Shown here one piece after another: positions 8,393 through 58,728 of a stretch of 64,000 nucleotides of DNA (position 1 is the stretch's first letter; every line of letters begins with the position of its first letter). Source of the stretch: an uncultured cyanobacterium. Lineage in GTDB: Bacteria > Cyanobacteriota > Cyanobacteriia > Pseudanabaenales > Pseudanabaenaceae. The position numbers were made by a program, and so were the translations under genes. The stretch is from NCBI GenBank assembly GCA_963703315.1, contig OY969811.1:2720001-2784000 (forward strand), given 5' to 3'. Under the pieces are notes generated by a model. That model had not been told where the DNA came from. It did no database searches and worked only from the letters and a program-made list of their open reading frames with translations.

Positions 8393-8524
8393 ATGTCAGA
8401 GGTTGTTCTTTTAAACTCTTTTTTCTGGATTGCCGTACTACTACTAGCACTAGCCACAGGTGGTATCGGTTATCTCACTTATTTAGAATGGCAAGATCGT
8501 CGCCGTCGTGGAGGAAAAAGTTAA
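8393..8524 (+). CDS. Small single-TM cyanobacterial protein (43 aa)
   Basis: [41 protein letters not shown] helix plus a TGG-x-YLT-x-EW-x-DRR pattern recalled from small conserved cyanobacterial proteins. Confidence 0.6.
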
Positions 8525-10172: not shown

Positions 10173-10365
10173 GGCTTACTATCAGGGATTCAAGCTGTTT
10201 ATATCTATCATATAACAATCTCTATAGAGCTAATACCAAAGCCCAAAATGGCTATGCCATTTTGGGCTTTGGTATTTATAGCTGTTGCCATTTGTATACC
10301 CAAGAAGCGTCACTACTCGTCTTCTGATTTTGTGTCCGAACAAGACTGGTGACCGCTATAGTGAG

Positions 10366-11431: not shown

Positions 11432-11706
11432 ATCGTTCAATTCGTAAGGATCTAGAACCTCTGATTGAGAAACTAAAATCAGGAGAAGTTCTAGGTGATC
11501 AAATTTCTGGTTTGAATAATCAAGTATTTAAAGTTCGTCTCAAAAATAGCAATATTCAAAAGGGGAAAAGTGCGGGTTATCGGGTTATTTATTATGTGAA
11601 AACTGAAGCCAGTGTGGTTTTGGTAACGATTTATTCTAAGTCCGACACATCAGATATAGAGAATAATGTGATCGAAAAAATTATTAAAGAATTTGTGGAG
11701 GAATAG
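11432..11706 (+). pseudogene. 5'-truncated RelE/HigB-like toxin
   Basis: Frame from the IS end reads RSIRKDLEPLIEKLKSGEVLGDQISGL...KVRLKNSNIQKGKSAGYRVIYY...LVTIYSKSD; N-terminus and antitoxin are absent. Confidence 0.8.
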
Positions 11707-11717
11707 GTATCGTTGAA

Positions 11718-11816
11718 GCGATCGCCTAAAAATCACTCACAGTAATAGCGATCGCCTTTAGAAGATAGATTGTTGATGCGATCGCCTAGAAATCACGACT
11801 CACAGTAATAGCGATC
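11718..11816 (+). repeat. HIP1-bracketed modular repeat A-B-A (copy 1)
   Basis: GCGATCGC-ctaaaaatcactcacagtaata-GCGATCGC-ctttagaagatagattgttgat-GCGATCGC-ctagaaatcacgactcacagtaata-GCGATC. Confidence 0.9.
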
Positions 11817-11871
11817 AAACAATCCGTATTATTTCACTTCGCAAAGCTTTACCTTAACAAACAAAAAAGTT

Positions 11872-12396
11872 ATGAATATTATCCCTCTATTCAATGATAT
11901 AGGTGAAGAAGGCGCTGAGTTTTACTGCCTAGCGTATGCTCCCGTTTGGTATCACCAGACCAAGAAGCCTGCACTTCCATCGGCGTTAGGAATTTACTTT
12001 TGCTCACATAAAGATTTCACGCAATTTAGTCAACACAGCTTCGCAGAGGATGGTCATCGCCTCTCGTATTCGCGAGGCGATGATAAGCGCGATACGCTAG
12101 AGTTTGTATTCTTGTCCGTACTCTTAGAAAGTTCCGTTCACCCTGCCATGTGGAGGTTGTTTCCTCGTGCGAAGATTCCGCACAGTTTTCAGTCAGATAA
12201 GTACGAGCAGGCACGTCGTCAGCTTTGCTGTTTATTGTTTCACTTCCGAAGTCAGGAGATGGTGGCACGACTTACATCTGATTTGCCTAAGCAGCCATTG
12301 ATGACTTGTGACGAGTCCGCCAGACGAGTAGCTTTCGGCGACTTCACAGAAGAGGATAAAGAACTTGAGCAAGCTATCATAGAGGAGAATAATTGA
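11872..12396 (+). CDS. Hypothetical protein (174 aa) between HIP1-bracketed repeats
   Basis: Long ORF with ATG and no internal HIP1; stop abuts the repeat at 12398. Confidence 0.6.
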   Translation: MNIIPLFNDIGEEGAEFYCLAYAPVWYHQTKKPALPSALGIYFCSHKDFTQFSQHSFAEDGHRLSYSRGDDKRDTLEFVFLSVLLESSVHPAMWRLFPRAKIPHSFQSDKYEQARRQLCCLLFHFRSQEMVARLTSDLPKQPLMTCDESARRVAFGDFTEEDKELEQAIIEENN

Positions 12397-12397
12397 T

Positions 12398-12480
12398 GCG
12401 ATCGCCTATAAATCACGGCTCACAGTAATAGCGATCGTCTTCACCAACCCTTTTAACAGATAGAGAATTGAGGCGATCGC
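12398..12480 (+). repeat. HIP1-bracketed repeat (unit A plus degenerate B)
   Basis: GCGATCGC-ctataaatcacggctcacagtaata-GCGATCG...agatagagaattgag-GCGATCGC. Confidence 0.85.
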
Positions 12481-12498
12481 TCAGAAAATTGATATTCG

Positions 12499-13216: not shown

Positions 13217-13237
13217 AATTGTTAGGCAATCTCAGAT

Positions 13238-13954: not shown

Positions 13955-14354
13955 ATGGATTTTAGATAAATTTCAAGATGGGAATGCTGGTAACTCACCT
14001 TACGCGGAACGTTTTAACCTCATAGCATTTCCTAATTAGGGTTTAGGGATTTGCCACTTTCTGGGTTTTATTCCCCCTCTCCTGCAAGGAGAGGATTTAG
14101 GGGAGAGGCTTACAAGGTTATCTGCGTAACATCGGGTAGTAATTTAGTGCAAAAACAGTTTACCTATGGAGTTTTGTAAAATTGTAATAGCAATTTACAT
14201 AATCTTTGCTCCACCGATTTAGACTAAGTAAATAGGCACTGTGTTCCTATATATTTTTTGTGGTGGAACTCATCTAAAGCTATTGACCACATTACAAGGC
14301 GATCGCTATTTGTTAAAAGTAAAGCTGCGATGCCCCCTCAACACCTAAAACATC

Positions 14355-14453
14355 ACGATCGCCTAAAAATCACTCACAGTAATAGCGATCGCCTTTAGAA
14401 GATAGATTGTTGATGCGATCGCCTAGAAATCACGAATCACAGTAATAGCGATC
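14355..14453 (+). repeat. HIP1-bracketed modular repeat A-B-A (copy 2)
   Basis: 14356-14456 matches 11719-11819 with one substitution (gact/gaat). Confidence 0.9.
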
Positions 14454-14649
14454 AAAATACATTTCTCTTCTGAGATTGTAGACCTTGTAGGGTTTGTTAA
14501 TGCAATGTAACGCACCCAAAATTTTATTTTTACACTTATTTAGCTGCTTTATATGACAGTTTATGGAATATTTATCTTTATACAAGTATTTATCCTAATA
14601 ATCTGCAAGATAATACATAGTTAGCAGTTCTCTATTAGAAATCAGAAGG

Positions 14650-15153
14650 ATGGATATGTCTAAAAAATGGAAGGGTCGGGAACAGCCAAATCTTGATCAT
14701 TTGATGTCACTTTTCTCGGATGACACCATTTCTGCATTCATTACTGGGCATCTAGTTATTGAATCTCTTCTTGTACAAATGATCGATCTAAAACTAGAAC
14801 ATCCTGATGAATTTGATACATTTAGTCTTAACTTCCCAGCAAAAACTAATCTGTGTAAGGCATTAGGATTAATTGATTCTGATATGACAAACTTTCTTCT
14901 TGAGATGAACACAATCAGAAATCGTTTTGCTCACAGGCTTGGATACAGCTTTTCCTTTGATGATGCGTTTAGCTTTGCTCAAGCTGCTGCCAAAGGGGGG
15001 ATAGACTTTTCAGATGATTCCATATACATGGATAAGGAGAATTCTGAAGAATGGTATGGCATCAAAGGAATTATTCAGGAAGTTTTTCAAAATACTGCTC
15101 AAGACCTCTCATTCATCATGGAGGAAAATGGTGGTGAATTTCAGTTTGGGTGA
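14650..15153 (+). CDS. Integron-cassette gene, MtlR/HEPN-like protein
   Basis: GHLVIESLL N-terminal helix and RNRFAH (Rx4H) motif; flanked by GTTAGCAGTT (14620-14629) and its reverse complement AACTGCTAAC (15168-15177). Confidence 0.65.
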   Translation: MDMSKKWKGREQPNLDHLMSLFSDDTISAFITGHLVIESLLVQMIDLKLEHPDEFDTFSLNFPAKTNLCKALGLIDSDMTNFLLEMNTIRNRFAHRLGYSFSFDDAFSFAQAAAKGGIDFSDDSIYMDKENSEEWYGIKGIIQEVFQNTAQDLSFIMEENGGEFQFG

Positions 15154-15170
15154 TCGAAATACTACTCAAC

Positions 15171-15246
15171 TGCTAACAATGGTGGTGCAGAAGATTGTTG
15201 GCAAAGTTGTAAAGTTTTTGGCAACCGCTGACCACAAACGTTCAGC
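15171..15246 (+). other. Integron attC recombination site (76 bp)
   Basis: R'' TGCTAAC, 5 nt, L'' TGGT(G)CAG ... L' CTGACCA, 5 nt, R' GTTCAGC; extrahelical G; inner gttggcaaa/tttggcaac stem. Confidence 0.8.
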
Positions 15247-15288
15247 TTCAGCGCACAGCTTTAACGCAAATTAAGTAAACTTTGACGT

Positions 15289-16059
15289 ATGAAACCTCAT
15301 GTATCTTTACTCGACAGAATTGAAATATTAAAGACGCAAAATCCAATTCAGGGAGCTTCGTATTACTGCGTCACATTGCTTGGCACTAAAGAGGGGAAAA
15401 TAAACCGATACTGCCAATCCGAGGTGTGCGGATACACTGATACAAAACCCCGCAGAGAAATTCGAGCAGGATGCTTGGTTGAGCCAACTAAGATGCGTGA
15501 TTTGTTTCAAGTGATTAAAGAACCGTCAGTTCTCGTGAATACATACAGTGACTTGTACGTATTTCTTCTGATTGGCGGTCATGGGATAATTGAGAAAAGT
15601 CTAGGTGAAAAGTACTTCGGTGATTTGTTGGCTGCGGAGGCGACAGTATTCTCCCATACAAAAGGACTTTTGCGGGTTCGTAGTTCGCCAAAAGCAATAA
15701 TTCAACACGCGCCAAGCAAGAAAACCCGAATGATAATCTTGAAACGTGATAATTATCGCTGTAAGGTATGTGGACGTTCACCAGAAAACCACGTTGATAT
15801 TGAATTGCACGTACATCATATACATCCTTGGGGAGAAGGCGGAGTAACTGAAGAAGATAACCTTATTACCCTTTGTAATACCTGTCATGACGGGCTTGAT
15901 CCCCATTTTGAGACAGACTTATTCCCTCTCATTGGTATCCAGCCTTATGTGAATATTATAAAAGCAGACCCTAACTACGTCGTTGGTGTTGTGAATTACC
16001 GTAAAGTATCCGTGAAAGCATATAAAACACTCGCCGAAAAAATGCCGCCACGCTCGTAA
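15289..16059 (+). CDS. HNH endonuclease with N-terminal extension (cassette gene)
   Basis: ILKRDNYRCKVCG...LHVHHIHPW...GG...NLITLCNTCH. Confidence 0.85.
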   Translation: MKPHVSLLDRIEILKTQNPIQGASYYCVTLLGTKEGKINRYCQSEVCGYTDTKPRREIRAGCLVEPTKMRDLFQVIKEPSVLVNTYSDLYVFLLIGGHGIIEKSLGEKYFGDLLAAEATVFSHTKGLLRVRSSPKAIIQHAPSKKTRMIILKRDNYRCKVCGRSPENHVDIELHVHHIHPWGEGGVTEEDNLITLCNTCHDGLDPHFETDLFPLIGIQPYVNIIKADPNYVVGVVNYRKVSVKAYKTLAEKMPPRS

Positions 16060-16192
16060 ACAGTTCGATCGCCGATCTTGTAGTTAATGAAGTGCAACGC
16101 ACCTTATTTTTGTTCGTATTGACACTGACTTGAACACAGTTACAATTTTTTAGCTAGACTACTGAGTAATAACTTTCAATCTAGGCGCAGCC

Positions 16193-16405
16193 ATGCTAGA
16201 CACATCAACACTTGAGCAACGCTTGATAACCCTTGAACAAGTAGTTTTCGATCTTCAAAATAAATTTGAAAGTAAGCCTAGCTCCGACAATTGGCTTGAT
16301 AGACTCATAGGTTCCATCTCTGATGACTCAGCTTTTCTTGAAGCTCTAGAATATGGACGTGCATTTCGGCTGTCTGATAAACCTATTGACGACACTGACA
16401 AATAA
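16193..16405 (+). CDS. Putative antitoxin (70 aa)
   Basis: LEQRLITLEQ...W...GS...FLEALEYGR pattern; directly upstream of a PIN toxin remnant. Confidence 0.6.
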   Translation: MLDTSTLEQRLITLEQVVFDLQNKFESKPSSDNWLDRLIGSISDDSAFLEALEYGRAFRLSDKPIDDTDK

Positions 16406-16407
16406 TC

Positions 16408-16560
16408 GTGAAATAGATGCGAAGTCAAAAAGTTCGTGTGTCTACAATGGACTTGAGAATTGCCGCGATCGCCATTTCTAACAACTTGGTATTACTTACC
16501 CGAAATACTGGAGACTTCAGTAAAGTTCCGAGTTTAGTAACCGAAGATTGGACAGTGTAG
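16408..16560 (+). pseudogene. VapC/PIN toxin with large internal deletion
   Basis: GTG AAA TAG is followed by RSQKVRVSTMDLRIAAIAISNNLVLLTRNTGDFSKVPSLVTEDWTV, the C-terminal third of a PIN domain. Confidence 0.8.
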
Positions 16561-16666
16561 CGCTGAAGGGCTTCCTTACAGTTAGCAAATAGATAGATCA
16601 TTGAGGCGATCGTAAGATATCTCAAAGCTATAATGTGAGGTAGCAAAAGATCTTCAGGTTAGGGGT

Positions 16667-17017
16667 ATGACTACAGTATCAATCTTGCCAATATCTAGTG
16701 TTAGCGGTGAAAAATCCTATCGGGCGATCGCAGGAGATAAGCAGTGGGTTGGTAAAACTGCGGGGCAAGCTCTAGATGGATTAACTGCTCAGTTAGGTGA
16801 AGCTGATTTCAGTGCGCTGATCGTTATCAACAGTTTTCATCCAGATCTATTTTTTAGCGCCGATCAACAAAAACGGTTATCGGAGTTAATGAATTTATGG
16901 CGAGTAGCACGCGATCGGGGAGAAACATTACTACTGGAACAACAAGCAGAGCTAGATAATTTAGTTGATGCTGAACTAAGGGCAGCAACTGCACGAACAA
17001 CCGCCTTAATGCAGTAA
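16667..17017 (+). CDS. Hypothetical protein, likely partner of the downstream HNH gene
   Basis: 116 aa ORF, GKTAGQALD...QQKRLSELM...ELDNLVDAEL; 8 nt before the HNH start. Confidence 0.65.
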   Translation: MTTVSILPISSVSGEKSYRAIAGDKQWVGKTAGQALDGLTAQLGEADFSALIVINSFHPDLFFSADQQKRLSELMNLWRVARDRGETLLLEQQAELDNLVDAELRAATARTTALMQ

Positions 17018-17025
17018 CTAAGTAT

Positions 17026-17241
17026 ATGAATCCCTATTACAGTGCGATCGCAGAACGTGCTAATCATCGTTGTGAATACTGCCATGCCCCAGAATTGGTT
17101 TTTAACTTCCCTTTTGAGGTTGAACATATCATCCCTCTCTCCCAGCAAGGGACAAATGACGAGTCGAATCTAGCTCTTGCCTGTCGATCCTGCAATCTTC
17201 GTAAAGGCACTCGTATTAGCGGCATTGATGCGATCGCCTAA
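17026..17241 (+). pseudogene. HNH endonuclease truncated at a HIP1-bracketed repeat
   Basis: RANHRCEYC...EVEHIIP...NLALACRSCNLRKG, then GID-AIA-stop supplied by the repeat at 17230; this family usually continues well beyond GID (recalled). Confidence 0.7.
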
Positions 17242-17298
17242 AACTCATGCCTTACAGTAATAGCGATCGCCTTGAGGAGATAGATTGTTAATGCGATT
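17230..17298 (+). repeat. HIP1-bracketed repeat A-B
   Basis: GCGATCGC-ctaaaactcatgccttacagtaata-GCGATCGC-cttgaggagatagattgttaat-GCGAT. Confidence 0.85.
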
Positions 17299-17350
17299 AC
17301 CAAAGTAATTAAGCCATAATTGCATTACAAACCTAATTTATCTGGCTCGA

Positions 17351-17881
17351 ATGTATATGAAAAATGAGAAGATCAAAGCAATACAAAATATCTTTAGTTC
17401 TAGACTCGACACGTTGAGCCATCTCTTAACAGTAGCAGAGAGCCATTTCGGAACCGATGTAGAGCCTATATTGCAGCGCCGTATAGCTCCCGATATGTTT
17501 CCCTTCGGTACACAAATTGTATTTACTTGCAATCAGCCCCGCAACTTTGCCTTGTGGTGCTTAGGACAGGCGGCGAATAACTTACCTCCCGACGTAGCAT
17601 CCCTAGATGAGGCGCGTACTCATATTTCATCTACAAAGGAACTGTTAGCAAGTATCAATGTTAGCGATACTATGCTTGCAGAGATCAAGCGGATTGAACT
17701 TGGAGAAGGTCTATACCTCGAACTATCTGGACTCTCATACGTGGATGATTTTCTGATGCCAAACTTTTACTTCCATTTGACCACAGCCTACGACATCCTG
17801 CGTATGGAAGGAGTACCCATAGGTAAGCACGATTTCATGATGCATTTGATACCTTTTGTAAAGCATCAAGGTAATTCATAA
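17351..17881 (+). CDS. DUF1993 family protein
   Basis: RIAPDMFPFGTQI, PNFYFHLTTAYDILRMEGVPIGKHDF. Confidence 0.9.
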   Translation: MYMKNEKIKAIQNIFSSRLDTLSHLLTVAESHFGTDVEPILQRRIAPDMFPFGTQIVFTCNQPRNFALWCLGQAANNLPPDVASLDEARTHISSTKELLASINVSDTMLAEIKRIELGEGLYLELSGLSYVDDFLMPNFYFHLTTAYDILRMEGVPIGKHDFMMHLIPFVKHQGNS

Positions 17882-17894
17882 CATGGAGTAAAAA

Positions 17895-18377
17895 ATGTCA
17901 TTATCTGAACCAATTAGCATTCAGCAGCTTTTCGCCAATGACTTGGCACTTATGGAAGAATTATTAACTGTCTTTGGTGAAGCTTTTGAAGAAGTTGATA
18001 CCTATAGCTCATCTCGTCCAAATGGTGCTTATCTCCAGCGTTTACTAGGTCGCGATTATTTCATTGCACTTGCAGCGTTAAAAAATGGATCGGTGGTTGG
18101 AGGTCTAGCCGCATACGAACTCCAGAAGTTTGAGCAAGAACGGAGTGAAATTTATATTTATGATCTAGCTGTTGCCGCCGCACATCGACGGCAAGGCATT
18201 GCCACGGCATTAATTCAAGAATTAAAGAAGATTGCTGTAGCGCGAGGAGCTTACGTTGTTTTTGTGCAGGCTGACATTGGAGATGACCCTGCGATCGCAC
18301 TTTATACAAAGCTTGGTGTGCGTGAAGATGTGCTTCATTTTGACATTGCTGTTGACGATAATAGCGATCGCCTTTAG
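17895..18377 (+). CDS. AAC(3)-I family aminoglycoside N-acetyltransferase (GNAT)
   Basis: [27 protein letters not shown]...HRRQGIAT...[28 protein letters not shown] closely follows AAC(3)-I; the last codons and stop come from the HIP1 repeat. Confidence 0.9.
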
Positions 18378-18401
18378 GAGATAGATTGTTGAGGCGATCG
18401 C
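18364..18401 (+). repeat. HIP1-bracketed unit B
   Basis: GCGATCGC-ctttaggagatagattgttgag-GCGATCGC. Confidence 0.85.
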
Positions 18402-18513
18402 GCTTGAATTAAAGTAGAATTTGCGGCAAATTTTTCCTCAATCAAATAATTAAACTGCAAGTGCTTTACAACTCCAAGCAATGTGTCTCTACGACCATTA
18501 AAATTCGCCTGTT

Positions 18514-18957
18514 TCAAATCTTCTGCTCACCTCGTTCAAGTTTGTTTTTCTGCAATTGATTTGGTTGTCTAGACCGATTTTTGCCAGCAATACGGAGAAG
18601 ACGAAGAAATTTTGGACATTCAAAATGGTTTGGCGCTTTGCAAACTGCCGCGTGACGAAGCCCATCACGCATTGAGGTCAGTTCCTTTATTTTCTTATCC
18701 AACTCCTCTGCTTTAGCTGAAAGCAGTGCAACATTAATTTCAACACCTTCAGGGGTAAACATTTCCGCGATCTCATCCAGAGAGAAACCAGCATTTCGTC
18801 CCAAAGCAATTAAAGCCAGCCGATCTATAACATCATCACTGAATTGACGACGTAGACCACTTCGACCATTGGACTGAATCAGCCCCTTCTCTTCGTAAAA
18901 GCGTAGCGTTGAGGCAGGCAACCCTGATGCCTTTGCAACTTCAGATATATCCATCAT
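18514..18957 (-). CDS. MerR family transcriptional regulator
   Basis: MDISEVAKASGLPASTLRFYEEKGLI HTH; C-terminal HAAVCKAPNHFECPKF. Confidence 0.9.
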   Translation of the reverse strand: MMDISEVAKASGLPASTLRFYEEKGLIQSNGRSGLRRQFSDDVIDRLALIALGRNAGFSLDEIAEMFTPEGVEINVALLSAKAEELDKKIKELTSMRDGLRHAAVCKAPNHFECPKFLRLLRIAGKNRSRQPNQLQKNKLERGEQKI

Positions 18958-18976
18958 GTCACTTTGCAATTAACAC

Positions 18977-19007
18977 TTGACTTCAAGTTAACTTGAACTT
19001 GTATTGT
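18977..19007 (+). promoter_or_regulatory. MerR-type promoter/operator of the TSUP gene
   Basis: -35 TTGACT, 19-nt spacer, -10 TATTGT; perfect dyad TTCAAGTTAACTTGAA at 18982-18997. Confidence 0.85.
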
Positions 19008-19039
19008 AGCCTCATACAAGATTTTATGAGCTAAAAACT

Positions 19040-19849
19040 ATGCTAAATATTGAATGGATATTGTTATACATCGCGTTGGGCGGCTTTGTTGGTTTTATGG
19101 GAGGCTTGCTCGGTGTTGGTGGTGGTGGAATCTTAGTTCCTCTCCTAGCATCAATTCTTGTTTACCAAGGTATCGGTGGAGATGAAGTAGTCCATTTGTC
19201 CTTGGGAACATCATTGATGTGCATGATCATTTCTTCCATCGCAAGTACTCGCGCACATTCATCTCGAAAAGCTGTAGTGTGGAAAGTCGTTGGCGGAATG
19301 GCTCCTGGAATTATTCTCGGCGCTCTCCTAACTACCCAAGTTGCGGCAACCCTCAAATCAGCTTACATTGCGCTTTTTATGGCACTTTTCATGGTGCTTG
19401 TAGCAGTGCAAATGTTTGTTAATTGGAAACCGAAACCTAGCTTGAAGCCAATTACATTTCGCGGATTACTGACAGTTGGAGTTGCGATCGGCTCGGTATC
19501 AGCACTAGCCGCAGTGGGCGGCGGTTTTCTCACAGTTACCTACTTGAGCTATAAGAATATCGTCATGAAAAGAGCAGTTGGCACTTCAGCCGCAATTGGA
19601 CTTCCGATCGCTATTTCAGGAACGATTGGTTACATGATTAGCGGCTGGTCTAAGACATTGAGCGCTCCCTATACTATTGGATTCATTTACTTACCAGCAT
19701 TTTTGGCAATATCGATTGCCAGTTCTATTGCTGCTCCTTATGGCGCTCGCTGCTCACATCGTTTACCTGAGGCTTATTTAAAAAAGATATTTGCAGTTAT
19801 CTCACTCATCTTAAGCTTAACGATGCTACGCTCATTTGTTAAATTTTGA
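19040..19849 (+). CDS. TSUP (TauE/SafE) family transporter
   Basis: GFMGGLLGVGGGGILVP, GTSL, AVGTSAAIG; about 8 TM helices. Confidence 0.88.
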   Translation: MLNIEWILLYIALGGFVGFMGGLLGVGGGGILVPLLASILVYQGIGGDEVVHLSLGTSLMCMIISSIASTRAHSSRKAVVWKVVGGMAPGIILGALLTTQVAATLKSAYIALFMALFMVLVAVQMFVNWKPKPSLKPITFRGLLTVGVAIGSVSALAAVGGGFLTVTYLSYKNIVMKRAVGTSAAIGLPIAISGTIGYMISGWSKTLSAPYTIGFIYLPAFLAISIASSIAAPYGARCSHRLPEAYLKKIFAVISLILSLTMLRSFVKF

Positions 19850-19863
19850 ACTAGAAGTATCGC

Positions 19864-20505
19864 CTAAATACTCAAATCACCAATATAAGACCCAATTTGC
19901 TTAAGTCCTTGCAAAACCTGAACACGTTCCATTGTGTTTTCGAGTAATCGATAAGTATGCGATCGCGTATATTGAGGGATATTTTGGTGGCGATCGCACT
20001 TCAAAAACAATACTTCTCTTCCATTTGTAACCATTCCATAGCAACTTGACTGTAAATTAGGAGCGCTCAACAAATAAGTAAGTGCTTGGGGAATTCCTGC
20101 CGTAACGTCTAACCTTGCAGGTTTTGATTCAATTACCAAAATCCAAAAGCTATCTTGGATTACCAAAATATCAATTCGACCTTGAACTGCCATAGCATTA
20201 GATTCATCCGCAACTTCGATATTAGTACTTACTTCTGCTTTTACCAAAAAAGGAAATTGATAGAAACCCGCCAAATCTAGCAATGGTGATATAACCACAA
20301 GCTTAACAATTTCTTCGAGGGGTGGTTCCTCTTGACTGAGATAGGTATAGTTGCGAGTGAGGCGATCTAGTCCTTGTAGTTCCGCCTCGGTTAGAGTCGG
20401 CGCATTATTTAACCATTCATCAAAAAAGCGATCGCTAGAGTTGAGTCTCAAGCCAAAGGTTTGACGGAGATTGCCAAGGGTAAGGCTACTAGCATTTGTA
20501 ATCAC
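19864..20505 (-). CDS. HsdR N-terminal-like PD-(D/E)xK restriction-endonuclease-fold protein
   Basis: VVISPLLDLAGFY, QGRIDILV...VIESK, GIPQALTY, GMVTNG. Confidence 0.8.
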   Translation of the reverse strand: MITNASSLTLGNLRQTFGLRLNSSDRFFDEWLNNAPTLTEAELQGLDRLTRNYTYLSQEEPPLEEIVKLVVISPLLDLAGFYQFPFLVKAEVSTNIEVADESNAMAVQGRIDILVIQDSFWILVIESKPARLDVTAGIPQALTYLLSAPNLQSSCYGMVTNGREVLFLKCDRHQNIPQYTRSHTYRLLENTMERVQVLQGLKQIGSYIGDLSI

Positions 20506-20589
20506 GGTTAAATCCTTTAAGTAATTACATGAAGTTTAGAAGTCTAGGCATTTGATCTAGGCGCTAATACCTAATATACGATAAAAATT

Positions 20590-20630
20590 GCGATCGCCTA
20601 ATAATCACGACTCACAGTAATAGCGATCGC
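20590..20630 (+). repeat. HIP1-bracketed unit A
   Basis: GCGATCGC-ctaataatcacgactcacagtaata-GCGATCGC. Confidence 0.88.
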
Positions 20631-20722
20631 TTTATATTTGCTAAATGATGATTGAATGAAATATGAATAACCTAACCCCGCAGTCTTCTTTAACTCGATT
20701 AAATTTTTGTTAGCCTTTATCT

Positions 20723-21181
20723 ATGGAAACAACTCCTAAAAACATCAACCTCGAACCAGAACTAGCCCTAGCTCTTGATTTAGACTTGGTGCGTCAACAG
20801 CTAGCAACTCGCGCCCAAAATCTGGCGATTCCCCAAATCGAAAAACATTTATTTCTATGTGCTGACCAAACCAAACCCCTCTGCTGCCAAAAGGAAGTGG
20901 GATTGCAAGCATGGGACTATCTAAAACGACGCATCAAGGAACTCAACTTAGAAGCAAAAATCTTTCGGACTAAGACTAACTGCTTGCGTGTATGCGATCG
21001 CGGACCGATTTTATTAGTCTATCCAGATGGTGTTTGGTATCATTCGGCAACCACAGAGATTTTAGAAAGGATACTCCAAGAGCATATTATTGGTGGCAAC
21101 ATCGTTATAGATTACGCCTTTGTCTCACCCCAAAAGGGTTCCTCGACTTCGGCGGGAAACCCATCCTGTAAAACGCAATAA
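20723..21181 (+). CDS. Thioredoxin-like [2Fe-2S] ferredoxin
   Basis: [14 protein letters not shown]...[25 protein letters not shown]. Confidence 0.88.
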
Positions 21182-21296
21182 GATACAGCGCTTTGCGCTA
21201 AATTAAAATACAAAGAAATTTTTGAAAGCGCGGCAGAGCCGCGCTTTCAAAAATTTCTTTGGACTACTTCAAGCCTCAACAGCCTGTAGCTATATC

Positions 21297-22652
21297 TTAT
21301 TGCGAGAGTGAAACTTTGCGAGAGTCGAATAACTGAAGTACGGCACTTTTAATCATTGACATCACATGGGGATCACAGCTTGCAATTAGCTCTTCGCGGG
21401 GCAGGTTGCCTTTAAAAAACTCTTTGGAAAGTCTGAGCATTCTTTGCATTTCAGGAAATCCAAGAGATTTCACCATAAAGGTTGCCACAGGAGAATTCCG
21501 CACATCGTAGCTAGAATCAACGCTTCGTCCCTTATCTAATAATTCTAATACTTCCGCTTCGATAGGCGTTGACGGCTGGTGTGGCACTTCAATTTGTGGC
21601 AAGAACTGTTCTAAGCCATCTACGGGATTATCTGATGGTAATTCCCCCATCATTGTTGAGAGTGAAATATCACGTCCAATGCGTAATGATAGTGCTTCTA
21701 GAATGGCGATCGAGGTTAACTTTGTACCTAAGTACAGTCTTGACACTTCCAGATTGTGATTAGTTTGGGCAAGTAGCTTGTAATAGTTTTTTTGATCAGG
21801 TTCATCACGATAACGTCGGAAAACGATTTCAGGCGAAAGGAAGTTCATAAAGCTTTCCATTTTTTGCATGGAAACTCGATAACCATGCACACTATAGGAA
21901 TTAGAATTTTTAAGATCGTGATTTGTTTCAGGAATTAAATTCCAAGTATTGTTGAGAAAAAGCGATGAATTTGGACTAGCAAAGTTTTTTACATCGCGGT
22001 TAGATAGGCGGACGGCTCTCTTGACGATTTCAGCAATATCTTGATCACCCCAGCCAAATTGAAATACTTCATTGGCATTAACTAAACGACCAAATAGGAG
22101 ATCAGAACAAGTTAGACCAGAATCTAGCTGCGGACGAAATGGAATAGTCGCTTCAATACAAGCTGTAATCTCGGCAAGCTTGTTGAGAGGCAACATATTT
22201 TCTAGGACTTTGATCGCAATGATGGCACTCAGAAATTCATTTTGCCCAGACATCGGTAATAAGGGCTGTCCATGCTCAAAGCCAAATAGCATCGATACCA
22301 TTTTGAAAATGATATCTTCTTGCAGTTCAGGGGCTTCGAGAATTACCAGTTGCTCACGGTCTTCTTTGATGTAGGGAGAAATGTAGCGACTGATATTGAC
22401 ACTAATACCTTGATCAACCTGTACATACACCAGATCATGAAATATTGCTGATATGACTTCGATCGCGTCTCCCCCTTCACCCACCTCAAAAATATGGTTG
22501 GGTGTGTGAAACGATCGCCAAGGACCAGTCATCGTTTGAATGATCAAATTGGAGATTTTAGTCAACTGTTCTTGGTCAACATGACCTTGCAAGTCGGCGA
22601 TCGCTTGCGTGAGGCGGTCTAGACATTTCTGTTTATCCGTTGCAGTACTCAT
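21297..22652 (-). CDS. Conserved hypothetical protein with HD-like N-terminus
   Basis: RSFHTPNH...AIFHDLVY motif; 451 aa from MSTATDK. Confidence 0.7.
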   Translation of the reverse strand: MSTATDKQKCLDRLTQAIADLQGHVDQEQLTKISNLIIQTMTGPWRSFHTPNHIFEVGEGGDAIEVISAIFHDLVYVQVDQGISVNISRYISPYIKEDREQLVILEAPELQEDIIFKMVSMLFGFEHGQPLLPMSGQNEFLSAIIAIKVLENMLPLNKLAEITACIEATIPFRPQLDSGLTCSDLLFGRLVNANEVFQFGWGDQDIAEIVKRAVRLSNRDVKNFASPNSSLFLNNTWNLIPETNHDLKNSNSYSVHGYRVSMQKMESFMNFLSPEIVFRRYRDEPDQKNYYKLLAQTNHNLEVSRLYLGTKLTSIAILEALSLRIGRDISLSTMMGELPSDNPVDGLEQFLPQIEVPHQPSTPIEAEVLELLDKGRSVDSSYDVRNSPVATFMVKSLGFPEMQRMLRLSKEFFKGNLPREELIASCDPHVMSMIKSAVLQLFDSRKVSLSQ

Positions 22653-22719
22653 CCAATCATCTCCACATTTAACTTCTTCGTATTTACAGCAGCGTTTCTC
22701 CACTCATTTCAACCACAAC

Positions 22720-22814
22720 TATAGCGTTTCACAGCTTAGTGAAGTACGGGATTGTTTCCCCGCCTTCGGCGGGGAAACAATCCTCTGTATCTCGCTTGCT
22801 TGAAAAGCGCTATA
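22720..22814. repeat. TATAGC-ended palindromic element
   Basis: tatagcgttt...ggattgtttccccgcc-ttc-ggcggggaaacaatcc...aaagcgctata. Confidence 0.8.
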
Positions 22815-23014
22815 TGCTAGTAATGATCTAGATAAATTGTGGTAATTGTTTAATGGCTTGACATTATTTGGGTGATTTTTATTAAATCGTAAAGTTTTAA
22901 AGACTCTGTATTGCATGAAACTTAAACTGACCTGTGTGTTTAACTAATGAGATTTGCTGTTTTAGCTCGGATGGGGATCTGATCAGGATAGTTAGCTCTT
23001 TACACTGCACATTC

Positions 23015-23491
23015 TTACATATTAATGGGATTCTCTGAAGATGCCAGAAAGTCTAATATGATCTGACGATGGCTGGGGGCAAGTGGACGATCCTGTAATA
23101 TGCGACGGGAATAGTGACTACCTTGGATAATCTCTTGCGGTGAAAGCAAATCCATGTCGCATCCTTCATTGAGTTCGAGCATATTTAGCCCTACATCTAA
23201 ACAACCATAAAATACATATCTAATTACTTGATCTCCTAAATAGCTGCGAAAAAATCTAATTTCTTGAGGAATATACCCGATTTCTTCTTGAAGTTCTCGG
23301 AGCATACCCATCTCAGGTTTTTCATTTATTTCTAGATGTCCGCCAAACATTGTCCAAACCCCCGGATGTACGATAGTTGGGATGTCATCACGCAGTTGCA
23401 TCAAAAATTGGTTTTGATGCTGCAAAATGGCGATCGCTACTGATCGGATAGTCTCTTCAGCGTTAACCACATCTAGCTCGTTATCCATCAT
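23015..23491 (-). CDS. NUDIX hydrolase
   Basis: LMQLRDD...FGGHLE...RELQEEIG Nudix box. Confidence 0.9.
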   Translation of the reverse strand: MMDNELDVVNAEETIRSVAIAILQHQNQFLMQLRDDIPTIVHPGVWTMFGGHLEINEKPEMGMLRELQEEIGYIPQEIRFFRSYLGDQVIRYVFYGCLDVGLNMLELNEGCDMDLLSPQEIIQGSHYSRRILQDRPLAPSHRQIILDFLASSENPINM

Positions 23492-23590
23492 TAATTAAGT
23501 TGGAGATTATGTAAATCGTAAGTTTGGCTTGAAATATATTAGTACTTACGCAAAGTAAAAAGGCTCAATATAGCAATACTTGGTTAAGTT

Positions 23591-23641
23591 AGCCCAAAAG
23601 ATTAATAGCGGCGCGAAGCGCCGCTATTAATCTTTTGGGCT
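23591..23641. repeat. Palindromic repeat (GCGGCGC core family)
   Basis: agcccaaaagattaatagcggcgc-gaa-gcgccgctattaatcttttgggct. Confidence 0.85.
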
Positions 23642-23769
23642 TTATGGAGGCATTTGCGCCGCAAATCTCCAGATGTCATTAATGTTGAGTTTGCGATTAG
23701 CTTTATACAAACTTAGAGTGCGATCGCTGTTACCATCAGTGATAATTTCTGGAAAGGAGTAAGCATTCG

Positions 23770-24732
23770 ATGTCCGCAGTCAATCAGCAAGAAGTTTTGG
23801 CAAGCTTTAAGGTTTTGGTAAGCATGGCAAAAGCCGACGGCAAATTGCTCGAAGAAGAGTTTGCCAGTCTCGCCGATACTTTTGAAGAAATTCATCTGCC
23901 TGAAGGTATGACCGTCGATAGCCTGTTGAATGAAGATGAGCAACCAATCGACACATTACTTTCACAAATTACCAGTGATATCGCACAGGAGATGGTTTAT
24001 CAGTCTGCCTACGCGATGGCAAATATCGATGGAGAGTGTAGTTCCGAAGAAAAAGAACTGTTAGACAAAATTGGGACAACTTTTACCAGTTCAAAACTTT
24101 GGGGCAAACAAGAATGGCTAGAAACCCTAGAGCGCCGTTCTACAAAATCAGCGATCGCTGCACAAATCAGTCAAATTGATGATCCTGAGAAACGGGCGAT
24201 GGAGGTCGAAAATGCGATCACCGATGCTTGTTTTCTTAATGCAGTTTTAGGCGCATTCCCGATCCCCGGAATTGCGATCGCCTTTGATATGTTGATCTAC
24301 TGGAATCAACTCGATCTCGCCCAAACCATTGGTCAAAGCTGGGGCTACGATCGCGACAATGAAAATCTTCGCAAAGCCTTATTTGGAAGCTTAGGGATCA
24401 CAGGAACCCGCATTGCTGTTAGCAATTTAGCCAAGCTCGTTCCTGTCTTTGGCATGGTAGTCGGCGCGACTACTGCTTATGCAAGTACATGGGCGCTAGG
24501 CAAAGTTGCTAATGAATACTTTGCCTCAGGTGGCGAGATGGATGCTTTTAGCTTACGTCAAGCCTTTAAGCAAGCGAAGAAAGAGGGTGAAGCCTTGTAT
24601 AAAACCAAAGCTGATGAAATTGCTGAGAAGAAAAAAGCGATCGAGCCTCAAGTGCAACTGCTCAATGAGGAACTGAAAGCTGGCAGTATTACGCCTGAAG
24701 AATATCAGGAAAAATTGAAAAATCTACTTTAA
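23770..24732 (+). CDS. TerB-like plus DUF697/YcjF-like domain protein
   Basis: MAKADGKLLEEE and AMANIDGECSSEEKELL (TerB-like), then LGAFPIPG...KLVPVFGMVVGATTAYASTWALGKVA. Confidence 0.75.
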   Translation: MSAVNQQEVLASFKVLVSMAKADGKLLEEEFASLADTFEEIHLPEGMTVDSLLNEDEQPIDTLLSQITSDIAQEMVYQSAYAMANIDGECSSEEKELLDKIGTTFTSSKLWGKQEWLETLERRSTKSAIAAQISQIDDPEKRAMEVENAITDACFLNAVLGAFPIPGIAIAFDMLIYWNQLDLAQTIGQSWGYDRDNENLRKALFGSLGITGTRIAVSNLAKLVPVFGMVVGATTAYASTWALGKVANEYFASGGEMDAFSLRQAFKQAKKEGEALYKTKADEIAEKKKAIEPQVQLLNEELKAGSITPEEYQEKLKNLL

Positions 24733-24767
24733 AAAAGAGAGGACGCATAGCGTCCTCTCTTTTTTTT
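24732..24767. terminator. Bidirectional terminator
   Basis: aaaaagagaggacgc-ata-gcgtcctctcttttttt between convergent genes. Confidence 0.8.
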
Positions 24768-25209
24768 AGAAACCACCAACCCGAATACCTGCGCCTAAAA
24801 CTACGAATAAGACAGCTAGACTGGTCACTCCCACAATGTGATAAGCCAAAGAGTTTAAAGTCTCTTTAGTGAGATTAGGAATAATGAAAAATCGCGCATG
24901 AATTGCTAAGGCGATCGTTCCTAATAGGAGTAATAGTTTGATGCCGATATAAGTGGAGAGATAGGAATCAAATGCTAGAAAACTCTCGAAATTAGGAAAA
25001 TAAGTCCATGTGAGCCATAGCCCTGTGATCACCTGTAATAGCAGGGCTGCGAGTCCAAATCCTTCAAAATGTTCTTCAAATTGATGAATGCGATCAGGAT
25101 CGCGATGTTTGAGAGCTTGAGGTAAAACGGTTGCTGCTAGTACCAGATGCCCACCTGTCCAGACAGTGGCTCCTAAAATATGCAAAACAACTAAGATTTT
25201 AAATAACAT
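24766..25209 (-). CDS. CopD-like membrane protein
   Basis: LHILGATVWTGGHLVLA, QVITGLWL, KLLLL...ALAIHARF. Confidence 0.75.
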   Translation of the reverse strand: MLFKILVVLHILGATVWTGGHLVLAATVLPQALKHRDPDRIHQFEEHFEGFGLAALLLQVITGLWLTWTYFPNFESFLAFDSYLSTYIGIKLLLLLGTIALAIHARFFIIPNLTKETLNSLAYHIVGVTSLAVLFVVLGAGIRVGGF

Positions 25210-25368
25210 GGGGTTATGTCAAGATTTGTTGACTTATGGTTATAGAATTGGCGATCACTTTAAGATTTGGTAAAAATAGATACAAAAATAATTGCATTTT
25301 TATAAGTCTACTTTGGATTTTGACAAAGGGCGATTGATTTCACCAACTTGCATCAAGAGGCGAAAGCT

Positions 25369-25614
25369 ATGAATACAGCGATTGATTGGGATGAAGTATT
25401 TGAATATCCACCCAGAACCATCGTAGAACTCAAAGCAAAGCCAGATGTTTTATACGAGATTGATTGGTATGAGGCGATGATGGTTCCACCGATCTGGTTA
25501 GTGGGCGATCCGCGTCCTCGCTATCCCCACGAATTGCGAATCGTGTCGCGCCTAAAATTACAACTTTGTGATTTAACATTTTGTGATTTAGCGGCGCAAC
25601 CTGCCTTGGTTTAG
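25369..25614 (+). CDS. Conserved cyanobacterial hypothetical protein
   Basis: MNTAIDWDEVFEY...YEAMMVPPIWLVGDPRPRYPHEL. Confidence 0.65.
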   Translation: MNTAIDWDEVFEYPPRTIVELKAKPDVLYEIDWYEAMMVPPIWLVGDPRPRYPHELRIVSRLKLQLCDLTFCDLAAQPALV

Positions 25615-25628
25615 GTTTCAGAAATATA

Positions 25629-25669
25629 GCGATCGCCTAAAAATCAAGACTCAAAGTAATAGCGATCGC
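25629..25669 (+). repeat. HIP1-bracketed unit A
   Basis: GCGATCGC-ctaaaaatcaagactcaaagtaata-GCGATCGC. Confidence 0.85.
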
Positions 25670-25760
25670 CAAAGTCGCACCACCGCTAATATCTCCTACC
25701 TTCCCAAAGTTGAAGTAGGGTCTTGGATATAGAATGTATTTAGTGCTACAGCCTATAGCT

Positions 25761-26018
25761 ATGACTATTAAAGAACAAATTATTCAAGAACTTGATCGCA
25801 TCCCTGAGTCTTATCTGGAGAAAGTGCTTAGTTTTTTGTATTGTTTAGAAACTCCATCGACTCATGATGTTGAGCAGTTAAGCAAGGCGGAAGCAATTAT
25901 CCAAAATGGATTAAATACTGCGCTATCCAAGCCAAAGCGATCGTCATTGGAAATCTGGGCAGAATTTGCATCTATTCGCAATAGAATTTCTGAAAGTATT
26001 GTTGATATGATCGCCTAG
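25761..26018 (+). CDS. Antitoxin-like (DUF2281-type) protein ending inside a repeat
   Basis: MTIKEQIIQELDRIPESYLEKVLSFL; last codons IVDMIA-stop are encoded by the repeat. Confidence 0.55.
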   Translation: MTIKEQIIQELDRIPESYLEKVLSFLYCLETPSTHDVEQLSKAEAIIQNGLNTALSKPKRSSLEIWAEFASIRNRISESIVDMIA

Positions 26019-26077
26019 AAATTACGACTCAAAGTACAAGCGATCGCCTTTAAGAAATAGATTGTTGATGCGATCGT
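25998..26077 (+). repeat. HIP1-bracketed repeat (B tail)-A-B
   Basis: attgttgat-atGATCGC-ctagaaattacgactcaaagtacaa-GCGATCGC-ctttaagaaatagattgttgat-GCGATCG. Confidence 0.85.
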
Positions 26078-26197
26078 GGGTTGTTGATGTTTGAGTTGGA
26101 GGCGATCAATTTTTGATAAGTTGTTTCAGGCGATCTCTATCAAGCCTATTATTGACAAGTGCGTTACTATTATATTAATTGCTCTAGGTAATTGATT

Positions 26198-26674
26198 ATG
26201 AAATGGGAAGAAGTTTGTGAGAATAAACAGCTACAAGATTTACCATTCAAAATTGAATTAAACAAGTGGGGGCAAATCGTAATGAGTCCAGTCAAAATCA
26301 AGCATTCTTTTCACCAAGGAAGACTCCAGCGTTTATTGGAGTCTTTGTTGAGTAATGGGGAAGTGATGCCAGAATGTGCGATCGACACAACAGACGGTGT
26401 TAAAGTTGCTGATGTTGTCTGGTGTTCTGCGGAAAGATTTGACAAAATTCAGGATGAAGTTTCAGCATCTATTGCCCCAGAAATTTGTATAGAAGTTAAA
26501 TCTATTGGGAATACTTTGGGTGAAATGGAATTCAAGAAAAAGTTGTATTTTGAAGCCCAAGCGCTTGAGGTATGGCTATGTGATGAAAAAGGTAAAATAA
26601 GATTTTATAATGAGCAAGGGGAATTAGAGCAATCTTTGTTAGTCCCTGATTTCCCGAAGCAAATTAAACGATAA
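26198..26674 (+). CDS. Uma2 family endonuclease
   Basis: KIELNKWGQIVMSP...H, VADVVW, APEICIEVKS, YFEAQALEVW. Confidence 0.9.
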   Translation: MKWEEVCENKQLQDLPFKIELNKWGQIVMSPVKIKHSFHQGRLQRLLESLLSNGEVMPECAIDTTDGVKVADVVWCSAERFDKIQDEVSASIAPEICIEVKSIGNTLGEMEFKKKLYFEAQALEVWLCDEKGKIRFYNEQGELEQSLLVPDFPKQIKR

Positions 26675-26723
26675 ATTATATTGCTTGTGTTTTAGTTGAT
26701 CGCCTATTCTCTCAAACAAAACA

Positions 26724-26795
26724 GCGATCGCCTTGAGAAGATTGATTGTTAATGCGATCGCCTAAAAATCATAACTCACAGTATATAGCGATCGC
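26724..26795 (+). repeat. HIP1-bracketed repeat B-A
   Basis: GCGATCGC-cttgagaagattgattgttaat-GCGATCGC-ctaaaaatcataactcacagtatata-GCGATCGC. Confidence 0.85.
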
Positions 26796-26934
26796 ATTGT
26801 CTATATGGAAGATGGTAAATTGATGCCAAATGTTGAAGCTTGTCATTAGAGCGATTGCGATAGCCTACATTAAACTCTTTAGAAAATGAATTGTTGAGGC
26901 GATCGCGAAGTCAAGAAGTTGATAGGCGATCAGG

Positions 26935-27018
26935 GTATAACAAATCATTGAAGCAAGCCAACAGCTATGATTTAGGCAAACTAAAAATGTCTACTCCTGT
27001 TCAATTTAGCCGTTAAGC
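26935..27018 (+). other. Integron attC site (84 bp) upstream of the LysE cassette
   Basis: R'' GTATAAC, 5 nt, L'' ATTGAA(G)C ... L' GTTCAAT, 6 nt, R' GTTAAGC. Confidence 0.7.
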
Positions 27019-27031
27019 TTTAGGAATACAT

Positions 27032-27649
27032 ATGAGCTTTTTCGATGCATCAGCACTGTTTGTAATCATGGTAACGCTCGCCATGATTCCTAGTACGAGT
27101 GTTGCCTTGGTGATTACACGCTCAGCCACATTAGGCTTTTCAAATGGGGCTGCCGTCTCAATGGGCATTGTACTAGGGGATTTGATTTTCGTATCGTCGG
27201 CAATTTTTGGACTAACGGCTCTGTCGGAACTGATGGGAACCTTCTTTTTAGTAATTAGATACGCTGCTGGCGTTTACCTTATTTGGTTTGGTGTAACCTT
27301 GATCAGAAGTAGAGCGAAAGCGTACTCTCTTCAATCCTATAGCGCTCGGGGCGGAATCGTTGCTAGTTTTTTTGCGGGTCTTTTTGTAACACTTGGTGAT
27401 GTTAAGGCTATATTTTTCTATGCGAGTTTATTTCCAGCATTTGTAGAATTATCGGCACTCAAAACACTAGACATTTTTGTGATTCTATTTGTAACTACAA
27501 TCACAGTTGGTGGTGTCAAGTTGACCTACGCCTTGATCGCCAAGAAAGTGGTGATTATGAGCAAAGGACTAGCAATTGAAAAAGAAGCTAAGTTGGCATC
27601 AGGTGCTCTTATGGTTGGCACTGGAACTTATCTCATTGCAAAAGTTTAA
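27032..27649 (+). CDS. LysE family translocator (integron cassette gene)
   Basis: PSTSVALVITRS...G...GIVLGD, YAAGVYLIWFG, GLFVTLGDVKAIFFY; stop TAA lies in AAAGTTTAAC, the near-complement of the cassette start GTTAAGCTTT. Confidence 0.88.
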   Translation: MSFFDASALFVIMVTLAMIPSTSVALVITRSATLGFSNGAAVSMGIVLGDLIFVSSAIFGLTALSELMGTFFLVIRYAAGVYLIWFGVTLIRSRAKAYSLQSYSARGGIVASFFAGLFVTLGDVKAIFFYASLFPAFVELSALKTLDIFVILFVTTITVGGVKLTYALIAKKVVIMSKGLAIEKEAKLASGALMVGTGTYLIAKV

Positions 27650-27821
27650 CAAAGCATTGTAACGGACAAGCCTCTGAATGCGTCATTATACTGAAACTAT
27701 ACGACCGTTAAGGGTGTCTGTTTCTAGTCGAGATTAGGTAAGCAAAAATGGTTGGCTTTGTTGTTGAGTACAGAGTAGTTATCTGCGATCACCAAGCATA
27801 AGTAATTGATAAGTGATCGCA

Positions 27822-27909
27822 GCATAACAAAACATTGGAGCGGATAGAAGCGTGATATTTTGGTGTTGAGTTGAAGGCGATCTATTGTCGCTCAATTCAG
27901 CCGTTATGC
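27822..27909 (+). other. Integron attC site (88 bp)
   Basis: R'' GCATAAC, 5 nt, L'' ATTG(G)AGC ... L' GCTCAAT, 6 nt, R' GTTATGC; R boxes perfectly complementary (AGCATAAC/GTTATGCT). Confidence 0.8.
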
Positions 27910-28027
27910 TCAATCGCGAAGTCCGTAAGTGAATGGTTTCTAGCCAAGATTGAGCAAGCAAATATCACCGACTTCGATGTTCAGTTCCGAGAAGTTATCG
28001 GCGATCGCAAAAACAAATAATTATTTA

Positions 28028-28068
28028 ACGATCGCCTAGAAATCATAACTCACAGTAATAGCGATCGC
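28028..28068 (+). repeat. HIP1-bracketed unit A (last copy)
   Basis: aCGATCGC-ctagaaatcataactcacagtaata-GCGATCGC. Confidence 0.85.
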
Positions 28069-58655: not shown

Positions 58656-58728
58656 CTTTTTCTAGTAATATCTTTTTCTAGTAATATCTTTTTCTAGTAA
58701 TATCTTTTTCTAGTAATATCTTTTTCTA
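58656..58728. repeat. Tandem 16-bp repeat (4.5 copies) over the DGC stop codon
   Basis: ctttttctagtaatat x4 plus ctttttcta. Confidence 0.9.

Follow-up and report, generated by a model that had tools for sequence, protein, structure and literature searches.

Integron remnants without an integrase gene, probably embedded in a HIP1-jointed gene-swapping system of Pseudanabaena

How do gene cassettes come to lie among HIP1 repeats with no integrase gene beside them, and does anything still move them? The question is raised by 64,000 nucleotides of an uncultured cyanobacterium (contig OY969811.1, positions 2,720,001 to 2,784,000; "the window" means this whole stretch). An initial annotation had described attC sites and cassettes there, interleaved with copies of HIP1 (highly iterated palindrome 1), an eight-letter palindrome common in cyanobacteria. 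The explanation that we consider probable is that these are decayed integrons that have lost the integrase gene intI and now lie within a gene-swapping system of the genus that is jointed by HIP1 and moves them. The cluster of attC sites is in itself ordinary. What sets it apart is its setting, in which HIP1 joints appear to have taken over decayed integrons and one insertion site can be compared exactly in its filled and empty forms.

The genome is a single contig of 4.57 Mb with 42% G+C and 8189 HIP1 octamers, or one per 557 bp; plasmids are absent from this assembly. We read the genus as Pseudanabaena on the basis of module matches on named Pseudanabaena plasmids. The source genome is coded G000, relatives carry codes of the form G022 and loci codes of the form L057. 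The samples of the genus comprised 36 congeners for the integrase (IntI) profile and 47 congeners, or 48 genomes with our own, for attI, attC and modules.

Where do the inserted sequences begin and end? The initial annotation treated 14620-27909 as one continuous span. There are instead two islands, split by conserved genes at 20723-25614. Island A runs from an insertion sequence (IS) at 10365 to position 20630. Besides an attI site and two cassettes, it holds units that were formerly cassettes or toxin-antitoxin pairs. Island B, to the right, is composed as follows, with cassettes that lack an open reading frame (ORF) called ORF-less.

25629..28068, + strand: island B, with HIP1 at each end (the right one at 28061-28068) and module A just inside each
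25734..26018, + strand: 94-aa antitoxin-like gene, whose partner gene in relatives is missing here
26192..26674, + strand: Uma2 family gene (PF05685) between modules
26788..26858, + strand: captured HIP1-to-HIP1 fragment, the 3′ end of a chromosomal ABC-ATPase gene
26880..27018, + strand: 3′ end of an ORF-less cassette with attC 2 (26935-27018)
27013..27692, + strand: lysE cassette, with the gene at 27032-27649 (PF01810) and a short mutated attC at 27644-27692
27686..27909, + strand: ORF-less cassette with attC 3 (27822-27909), the best-preserved site, directly behind the attC of the lysE cassette
27904..28068, + strand: second ORF-less cassette, in which module A replaces attC at the last HIP1 site

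The border of island B can be read from relatives. Upstream of ric, four of 11 relatives carry a single empty HIP1 whose flanks are those of island B (G009, G013, G020 and G062). Two others carry different module-bounded cargo that ends at that same octamer, namely attI and a cassette in G002 and an attC cassette in G007. A further two have no insert and an altered site, and the remaining three have other neighbours. Contigs of two metagenome runs skip 25626-28066, that is, island B. This comparison used assembled contigs rather than raw reads, and uncovered stretches were not counted as evidence. Contigs of one run cover most of the region and differ from it at 0-1 positions per piece, which makes a gross error of assembly unlikely; this run may represent the source DNA and is thus not independent.

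HIP1 also marks borders elsewhere. At the 3′ end of AAC(3)-I genes, surveyed at 26 loci of which six lack a readable junction, module B begins at HIP1 in eight of the 20 readable loci, while four continue with a shared, different sequence. The fragment at 26788-26858 (70 bp) is cut at an internal HIP1-like site. It has its native gene context in G019, G026 and G005, and its homologues lie behind a module or another HIP1 in G007, G025, G023 and in a second copy in G019. The source gene is, we presume, DevA-like. The ORF-less cassette ends in two HIP1-type sites, and module A replaces attC after the last of them, both at 28028 and in several relatives.

What are the modules? They are repeats of 30-33 bp bounded by HIP1, with 25 nt between the HIP1 copies in module A and 22 nt in module B. 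Fourteen of the 20 copies in the genome fall within 11753-28035, about 16 kb (15 of 23 with one more mismatch), all on the + strand like attI and attC. The initial annotation was therefore right that attC sites and HIP1 modules lie on one strand. Those in the left part of island A form three clusters.

11710..11817, + strand: HIP1-bounded module cluster behind the 3′ piece of relE
12393..12480, + strand: HIP1-bounded modules closing a unit with a 174-aa gene
14355..14455, + strand: HIP1-bounded module cluster directly upstream of attI, in the place of the intI 5′ region of intact integrons

Module A is present in 40 of the 48 genomes of the genus, and single matches occur in two of 188 other cyanobacteria sampled. 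Related repeats are found on Pseudanabaena and Planktothrix plasmids. In the arrays of relatives, one or two genes facing either direction lie between modules, and these genes are often toxin-antitoxin pairs, as judged from ORF starts. At 26 loci from 12 genomes, which were picked for module clusters and oriented by their modules, 274 modules lie on one strand and none on the other. Among 48 homologous inter-module pairs there is no inverted case; 10 pairs share both ends, and seven families recur. Five units of the window recur in module arrays of relatives, and in several of these arrays an orphan attI stands directly behind modules. The initial proposal that pieces of cassette arrays are fixed via HIP1 thus gains support from the filled and empty alleles at one octamer and from the genus-wide module arrays.

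Where intI is full or long, the downstream stretch (12 loci) holds no module. The number of modules per genome does not track the presence of intI, with a median of 9 in genomes without an intI match versus 11 in those with one (p 0.85). Shuffles likewise gave no support to an origin of modules A and C in attC or an ORF-less cassette (p 0.19-1.0), and by local alignment the modules are unlike attC. Module B is the only one that matches the ORF-less cassette, over 12 bp (p 0.003, one of 12 comparisons).

Are the cassettes of the IntI type? The three attC-like sites that had been reported (15171-15246, 26935-27018 and 27822-27909) are all present on the + strand, and they have the R and L boxes, the 5-6-nt spacers and the extrahelical base of attC. 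We built a covariance model from 33 aligned attC sites of relatives, which had been gathered from their arrays by a pairing heuristic, and left the window sites out of training. The model matches in 48 of 48 genomes of the genus. In the window, attC 3 (27818-27921) scores 68.2 bits (E 4.5e-15) and attC 2 (26931-27030) scores 41.7 bits (E 2.1e-8). The attC of the lysE cassette reaches 18.9 bits, whereas attC 1 (15168-15258) fits the genus model poorly, with a score of only 15.2 bits (E 0.1); after these four sites, the next match has 10 bits. In the L stem of the 33 training sites, 94.8% of cells are paired and seven pairs show two-sided changes, figures that lean favourable because the sites were selected for pairing. 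The heuristic alone is weak evidence, since it gives five matches in the window versus 0-4 in 10 shuffles.

Checks by covariance model and by folding had been proposed for these sites. The model is significant for the sites at 26935 and 27822 but not for that at 15171, and the free folds of the three bottom strands are not better than those of shuffles (z -0.94, -0.27 and -0.80). At the R box, the pair probability falls from 0.93 in site 3 to 0.37 in site 2 and 0.03 in site 1, compared with 0.11-0.99 in six sites of relatives' arrays. By this measure the recombinogenic hairpin forms in site 3, in part in site 2 and not in site 1. attC 1 is a site of a foreign type with a weak fold. Support for it that does not depend on the model comes from a metagenome contig that matches cassette 1 up to 15239 and ends at the crossover base.

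Complementarity between the start core of a cassette and its own R″, which had been noted for two cassettes, is confirmed at 10 of 10 positions around the HEPN-like gene and at nine of 10 around lysE, whose stop codon lies inside R″. The sequence from 27644 onward had been taken for a partial attC. It is an attC, but a complete short one of about 50 nt with point mutations that include the G of R′. Together, the attC model scores and the comparison with attC arrays of relatives and with the attC behind a homologue of the AAC gene support the view that these are IntI-type cassettes.

Is this a CALIN, a cluster of attC sites without integron-integrases? CALINs are defined by at least two attC sites within 4 kb with no intI near, their origins include loss of intI and rearrangement, and integrons have been reported in Cyanobacteria (Cury et al. 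2016, PMC4889954; the papers cited here were available in excerpt, and statements about them hold for those excerpts). Island B fits this definition, with sites at 26935, 27644 and 27822 within 1 kb and no intI nearby. The CALIN-like character that had been attributed to the whole region therefore holds for this right-hand cluster but not for the left part, whose site at 15171 lies 11.7 kb off, beyond the conserved genes. The left cluster is an attI site with cassettes that has lost intI.

14482..14517, + strand: GTAG hairpin fused to the left end of attI, with 28 look-alikes in the genome and the same arrangement in G002 and G061
14518..14622, + strand: orphan attI, type 1 of the genus, with the crossover G/TT at 14620/14621
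14621..15240, + strand: cassette 1, with a 167-aa HEPN/MtlR-like gene at 14650-15153 that has an RNRFAH motif
15171..15246, + strand: attC 1, with an L box of 7/7

The attI site was previously read, at 14569-14626, as a partial attC, and the 64 kb were said to hold neither intI nor attI. The sequence at 14518-14622 is 77.6% identical over 107 bp to a site upstream of intI in G022 and is also homologous to sites upstream of intI in G066, G067 and G063. In the window, the first cassette is joined to it at G/TT. Its tail before G/TT is the same as in all attI sites seen across the genus. Given this homology to an intI-adjacent site of relatives, the statement about attI is false. A search for a cassette promoter (Pc) in 14330-14660, attI and the sequence upstream of it, that was limited to promoters of the sigma-70 type gave no match. 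Homologues of type-1 attI occur in 27 of 47 congeners, with up to six per genome, and the matches end at the crossover. Matches of 82% to type-1 attI also occur on two Nostoc plasmids.

The statement about intI, by contrast, is correct for the window and for the whole genome. The best score with the profile TIGR02249 is 32 bits, versus a cut-off of 265 bits, and a tblastn search with the IntI of two congeners gave, as the sole match in the genome, a 5′ remnant of 41 codons at 1.81 Mb. The idea, raised earlier, that an integrase elsewhere acts in trans is accordingly not supported for this chromosome. Among the 36 congeners, 22 have an IntI match at E 1e-30 and 17 reach the cut-off. Within 1.5 kb of 19 type-1 attI loci, intI is full in three, partial in one, present as a short 5′ remnant in two and without trace in 13.

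Further attI remnants of another type occur in G000 at 1.81 and 3.78 Mb, with a possible fourth near 152 kb, in addition to two more attC sites. Since attI loci are mostly without intI and the genome has further remnants, integron decay is common here. The remnant at 1,811,469-1,811,732 is an attI with the 41 codons of intI. That at 3,777,320-3,778,310 combines an attI with a single cassette, and a GTAG hairpin interrupts the attC of this cassette. At about 151,500-152,600, a probable attI, a cassette, a broken attC and an ORF-less remnant precede the next gene, which we take to be uvrB. A solo attC stands behind a two-gene unit at 653,033-653,137. The genus has two types of attI and IntI, one with a longer N-terminus (L007-L013), and its integrons look mobile in that they adjoin differing core genes.

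Two ideas about the history of the attI site were set aside. A former intI beside radA in the window does not hold up, the gene at 8475-10172 being ribBA. A move of attI from island B to island A by one module-A crossover was dropped as not needed, because the unit of module, hairpin and attI occurs at unrelated loci in relatives. The GTAG hairpins, presumably REP-like, are located at the left end of attI, before the VapBC unit (16074-16105) and inside the attC that is broken at 3.78 Mb, and they may act as a further cause of decay in the arrays.

How might such a locus have arisen? IntI-type integrons at various loci of the genus captured cassettes, including the common ORF-less cassette that bears HIP1; products of this step in the window are attI, cassette 1, the lysE cassette, attC 2 and attC 3. 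Comparison with relatives shows that intI was lost and that deletion removed many attC sites. As the sequences now stand, modules A, B and others, which are short intervals from one HIP1 to the next, serve as co-oriented joints between gene units. Units, orphan attI sites and cassette runs are found between such joints in varied orders, and island B lies in one HIP1 octamer. A first insertion may have proceeded by HIP1-centred recombination with 11-14 bp of flanking identity, and later changes by homologous recombination between module runs of 30-130 bp. Exchange between direct repeats would preserve the observed polarity. This scheme would draw on host recombination functions without IntI, probably together with natural transformation; the enzyme and the present activity of HIP1-module exchange are points that we infer. 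Tentatively, and with somewhat less than even confidence, we go further and suggest that Pseudanabaena has an integrase-free second cassette system. HIP1 joints, derived in part from the ORF-less cassette, would take over dead arrays, and single HIP1 sites would receive units for toxin-antitoxin, defence and resistance functions, as well as attI, which genomes could in this way exchange.

Three other explanations have to be set against a HIP1-jointed exchange of decayed integrons. We think it rather unlikely that the arrays merely decayed, the dead integrons being insertion hotspots and the modules selfish repeats, similar to SDR5 (small dispersed repeat 5), that cause occasional deletions without any route of exchange. 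Several genes are indeed truncated or deleted at modules, attC sites are mutated and borders are ragged, and SDR5 itself has been described as a module inserted in HIP1 without known function (PMC4390886, PMC13756078). It counts against passive decay, however, that the same units recur between modules in varied orders and genomes with constant polarity, that modules also occur upstream of attI and on plasmids, that a whole island lies in one HIP1 or that a core-gene fragment was moved as a module. The strict polarity and the gene-sized spacing would suit a dedicated recombinase or transposase that recognises module A or B and builds the arrays, much as IntI does on attC or XerCD on pdif, and so would the near-confinement of module A to the genus, in 40 of its 48 genomes. 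Such an enzyme is nevertheless improbable: none was noticed beside 20 mapped arrays, for which ORFs were listed with no family scan, the two tyrosine-recombinase loci and the one Y1 transposase locus of the genome are not near the islands, and junctions vary among modules and HIP1 copies.

An IntI supplied by a plasmid or a visiting integron, which would still assemble the arrays via attI, attC and secondary sites with the HIP1 repeats as bystanders, seems to us very unlikely. In its favour, attI and attC 3 appear to be usable, many congeners have IntI, an attI homologue is carried by two Nostoc plasmids, and plasmids are missing from the assembly. No IntI is encoded on the chromosome, however, and the modules are unrelated to attC by local alignment. 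The border of the island is HIP1 rather than a GTT core, the genes between modules face both ways, and modules are absent from the 12 loci that lie downstream of a full or long intI gene.

Several observations weigh against the reading that we favour. Only those 10 of the 48 homologous pairs share both ends, which means that unit borders are often ragged. One locus (L145 of G033) carries modules on both strands, and the loci of the module survey were chosen for clusters and oriented by modules. Module A could not be traced to attC or the ORF-less cassette, its matches to them being at shuffle level. In the metagenome contigs without island B, no intact HIP1 stands at that position. All three filled alleles upstream of ric have the same right end, and one ancestral insertion may be behind them. 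Two junctions in the window (at the HNH gene, 17222, and at the antitoxin gene, 26000) lie at 4-5 bp of microhomology where relatives have no HIP1, and a module is present within 1.5 kb at only four of the 19 attI loci. Neither an enzyme nor a circular intermediate was seen in the contigs compared.

How does the locus compare with known systems? The pdif modules of Acinetobacter plasmids are bounded by XerC/XerD dyads that alternate in orientation and enclose shuffled toxin-antitoxin and resistance modules. The arrays described here resemble them in that short sites bound shuffled modules, but the joints are direct repeats built on HIP1. Compared with CALINs, attI survives here, several orphan attI sites per genome occur in the genus, and HIP1 modules joint or bound the arrays and replace attC. 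A cyanobacteria-specific attC model exists and chromosomal attC sites are known in the phylum (Ghaly et al. 2021, PMC8352920); the available passages of that paper are silent on HIP1 and on ORF-less cassettes. ORF-less cassettes are known as non-coding cassettes with a normal attC (PMC8876359), while the family found here differs in having two HIP1-type sites at its 3′ end and 29 copies in one array of G063.

SDR5, a module of 21 nt in a HIP1 site of heterocystous cyanobacteria whose function is not known (Elhai et al. 2008, via PMC4390886 and PMC13756078), is similar in being a short module flanked by HIP1 on both sides. By description rather than by sequence, the modules of the window differ from it in their interiors of 25 and 22 nt, in being nearly confined to one genus and in bounding gene cargo in polarised arrays. 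Published work links HIP1 to excision, to site-specific recombination and to improved transformation (PMC4390886, PMC13756078, 10.1101/2024.09.10.611283), and the borders of the HIP1-flanked smtB deletion and of HIP1-linked plasmid recombination are at HIP1 (cited in PMC13756078 and PMC4390886). The deletion and the plasmid recombination were single laboratory events, whereas the filled and empty alleles seen here are natural and the gene units recur. Earlier work had already described CALINs, cyanobacterial attC sites, ORF-less cassettes and SDR5 (PMC4889954, PMC8352920, PMC8876359, 10.1101/2025.06.18.660453). Our literature search, with subscription papers and supplements outside its scope, found nothing on HIP1-jointed gene or cassette arrays, on their link to integrons or on Pseudanabaena integrons.

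The function of HIP1 has been an open question for thirty years, and the natural alleles described here are exact substrates for tests of HIP1-centred recombination. They show that one HIP1 octamer houses a 2.4-kb island, that HIP1-to-HIP1 fragments have travelled as units and that gene arrays are jointed by modules. Cassettes, including one with an AAC(3)-I family gene, may remain mobile after the loss of intI and attC, in a form that attC-based tools would miss; our literature search turned up no such fate of integrons. If the tentative reading of a second cassette system is true, HIP1 would have a natural, locus-level role in gene transfer.

What else do the islands contain? The remaining features of island A and the genes between the islands are as follows.

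10365..11432, + strand: IS1-family element bounding island A on the left (NF033558, 75.7 bits, below the cut-off of 100)
15241..16065, + strand: cassette 2, with an HNH gene at 15289-16059 (PF01844) and its attC lost at a HIP1-like site
16066..16570, + strand: VapBC-type unit, in which vapC has an internal deletion
16606..17297, + strand: a 116-aa gene and an HNH gene truncated at module A, then modules A and B
17351..18401, + strand: genes for DUF1993 (PF09351) and an AAC(3)-I family acetyltransferase, both once attC cassettes; module B is attached at a HIP1 within the 3′ end of the AAC gene
18514..19849: unit of a MerR regulator gene and a divergent TauE exporter gene
19864..20630: minus-strand unit with an HSDR_N-like gene, and the module A that closes island A
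20723..25614: conserved chromosomal genes that are not cassette cargo (2Fe-2S ferredoxin, a 468-aa gene, NUDIX, EcsC-like, CopD and an 88-aa gene)

A second copy of the IS, 99.9% identical, is located at 2,618,383-2,619,449 of the genome. The target duplications are swapped between the two copies, which points to a 110-kb inversion that split relE. The gene left at 2.62 Mb is directly upstream of the ferredoxin gene in eight of 10 relatives' loci, suggesting that island A is one insertion between these genes. The conserved genes at 20723-25614 are likewise present in relatives, there without such inserts.

The protein of cassette 1 has MtlR/DUF4145 as its Atlas neighbours at 0.94. A homologue with 66% identity in a metagenome-assembled genome of Bacteroidota has an attC-like hairpin behind it (one of two homologues, judged by eye), and a plasmid search with cassette 1 gave no match. 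Full-length homologues of the VapBC unit occur within an attC array in G063 and between modules in G062 and G026. The AAC(3)-I gene (17895-18377) scores 239 bits with NF033083, versus a cut-off of 200. An R″-like remnant lies at 17876-17882 in this unit, and in G083, of a neighbouring genus, an attC of 44 bits stands directly behind the AAC homologue. Homologues of the AAC(3)-I gene occur in 26 of 71 genomes of the family, mostly adjoining HIP1 modules. The end of the TauE/MerR unit is joined to a piece of the ORF-less cassette in three metagenome runs.

In island B, the lysE gene has no close congener, the matches in three of 47 congeners being 48-50% identical. The ORF-less cassette at 27686-27909 is about 73% identical to the 143-nt ORF-less cassette of G063, which is repeated 29 times in near-identical form, singly or in runs, between the gene cassettes of an array of about 40 kb (L057, L058); that genome has 71 attC matches in all.

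The palindromic intergenic repeats at 21184-21290 and 22720-22815 belong to families with many copies across the genus. A 16-bp tandem repeat is located between genes at 58656-58735.

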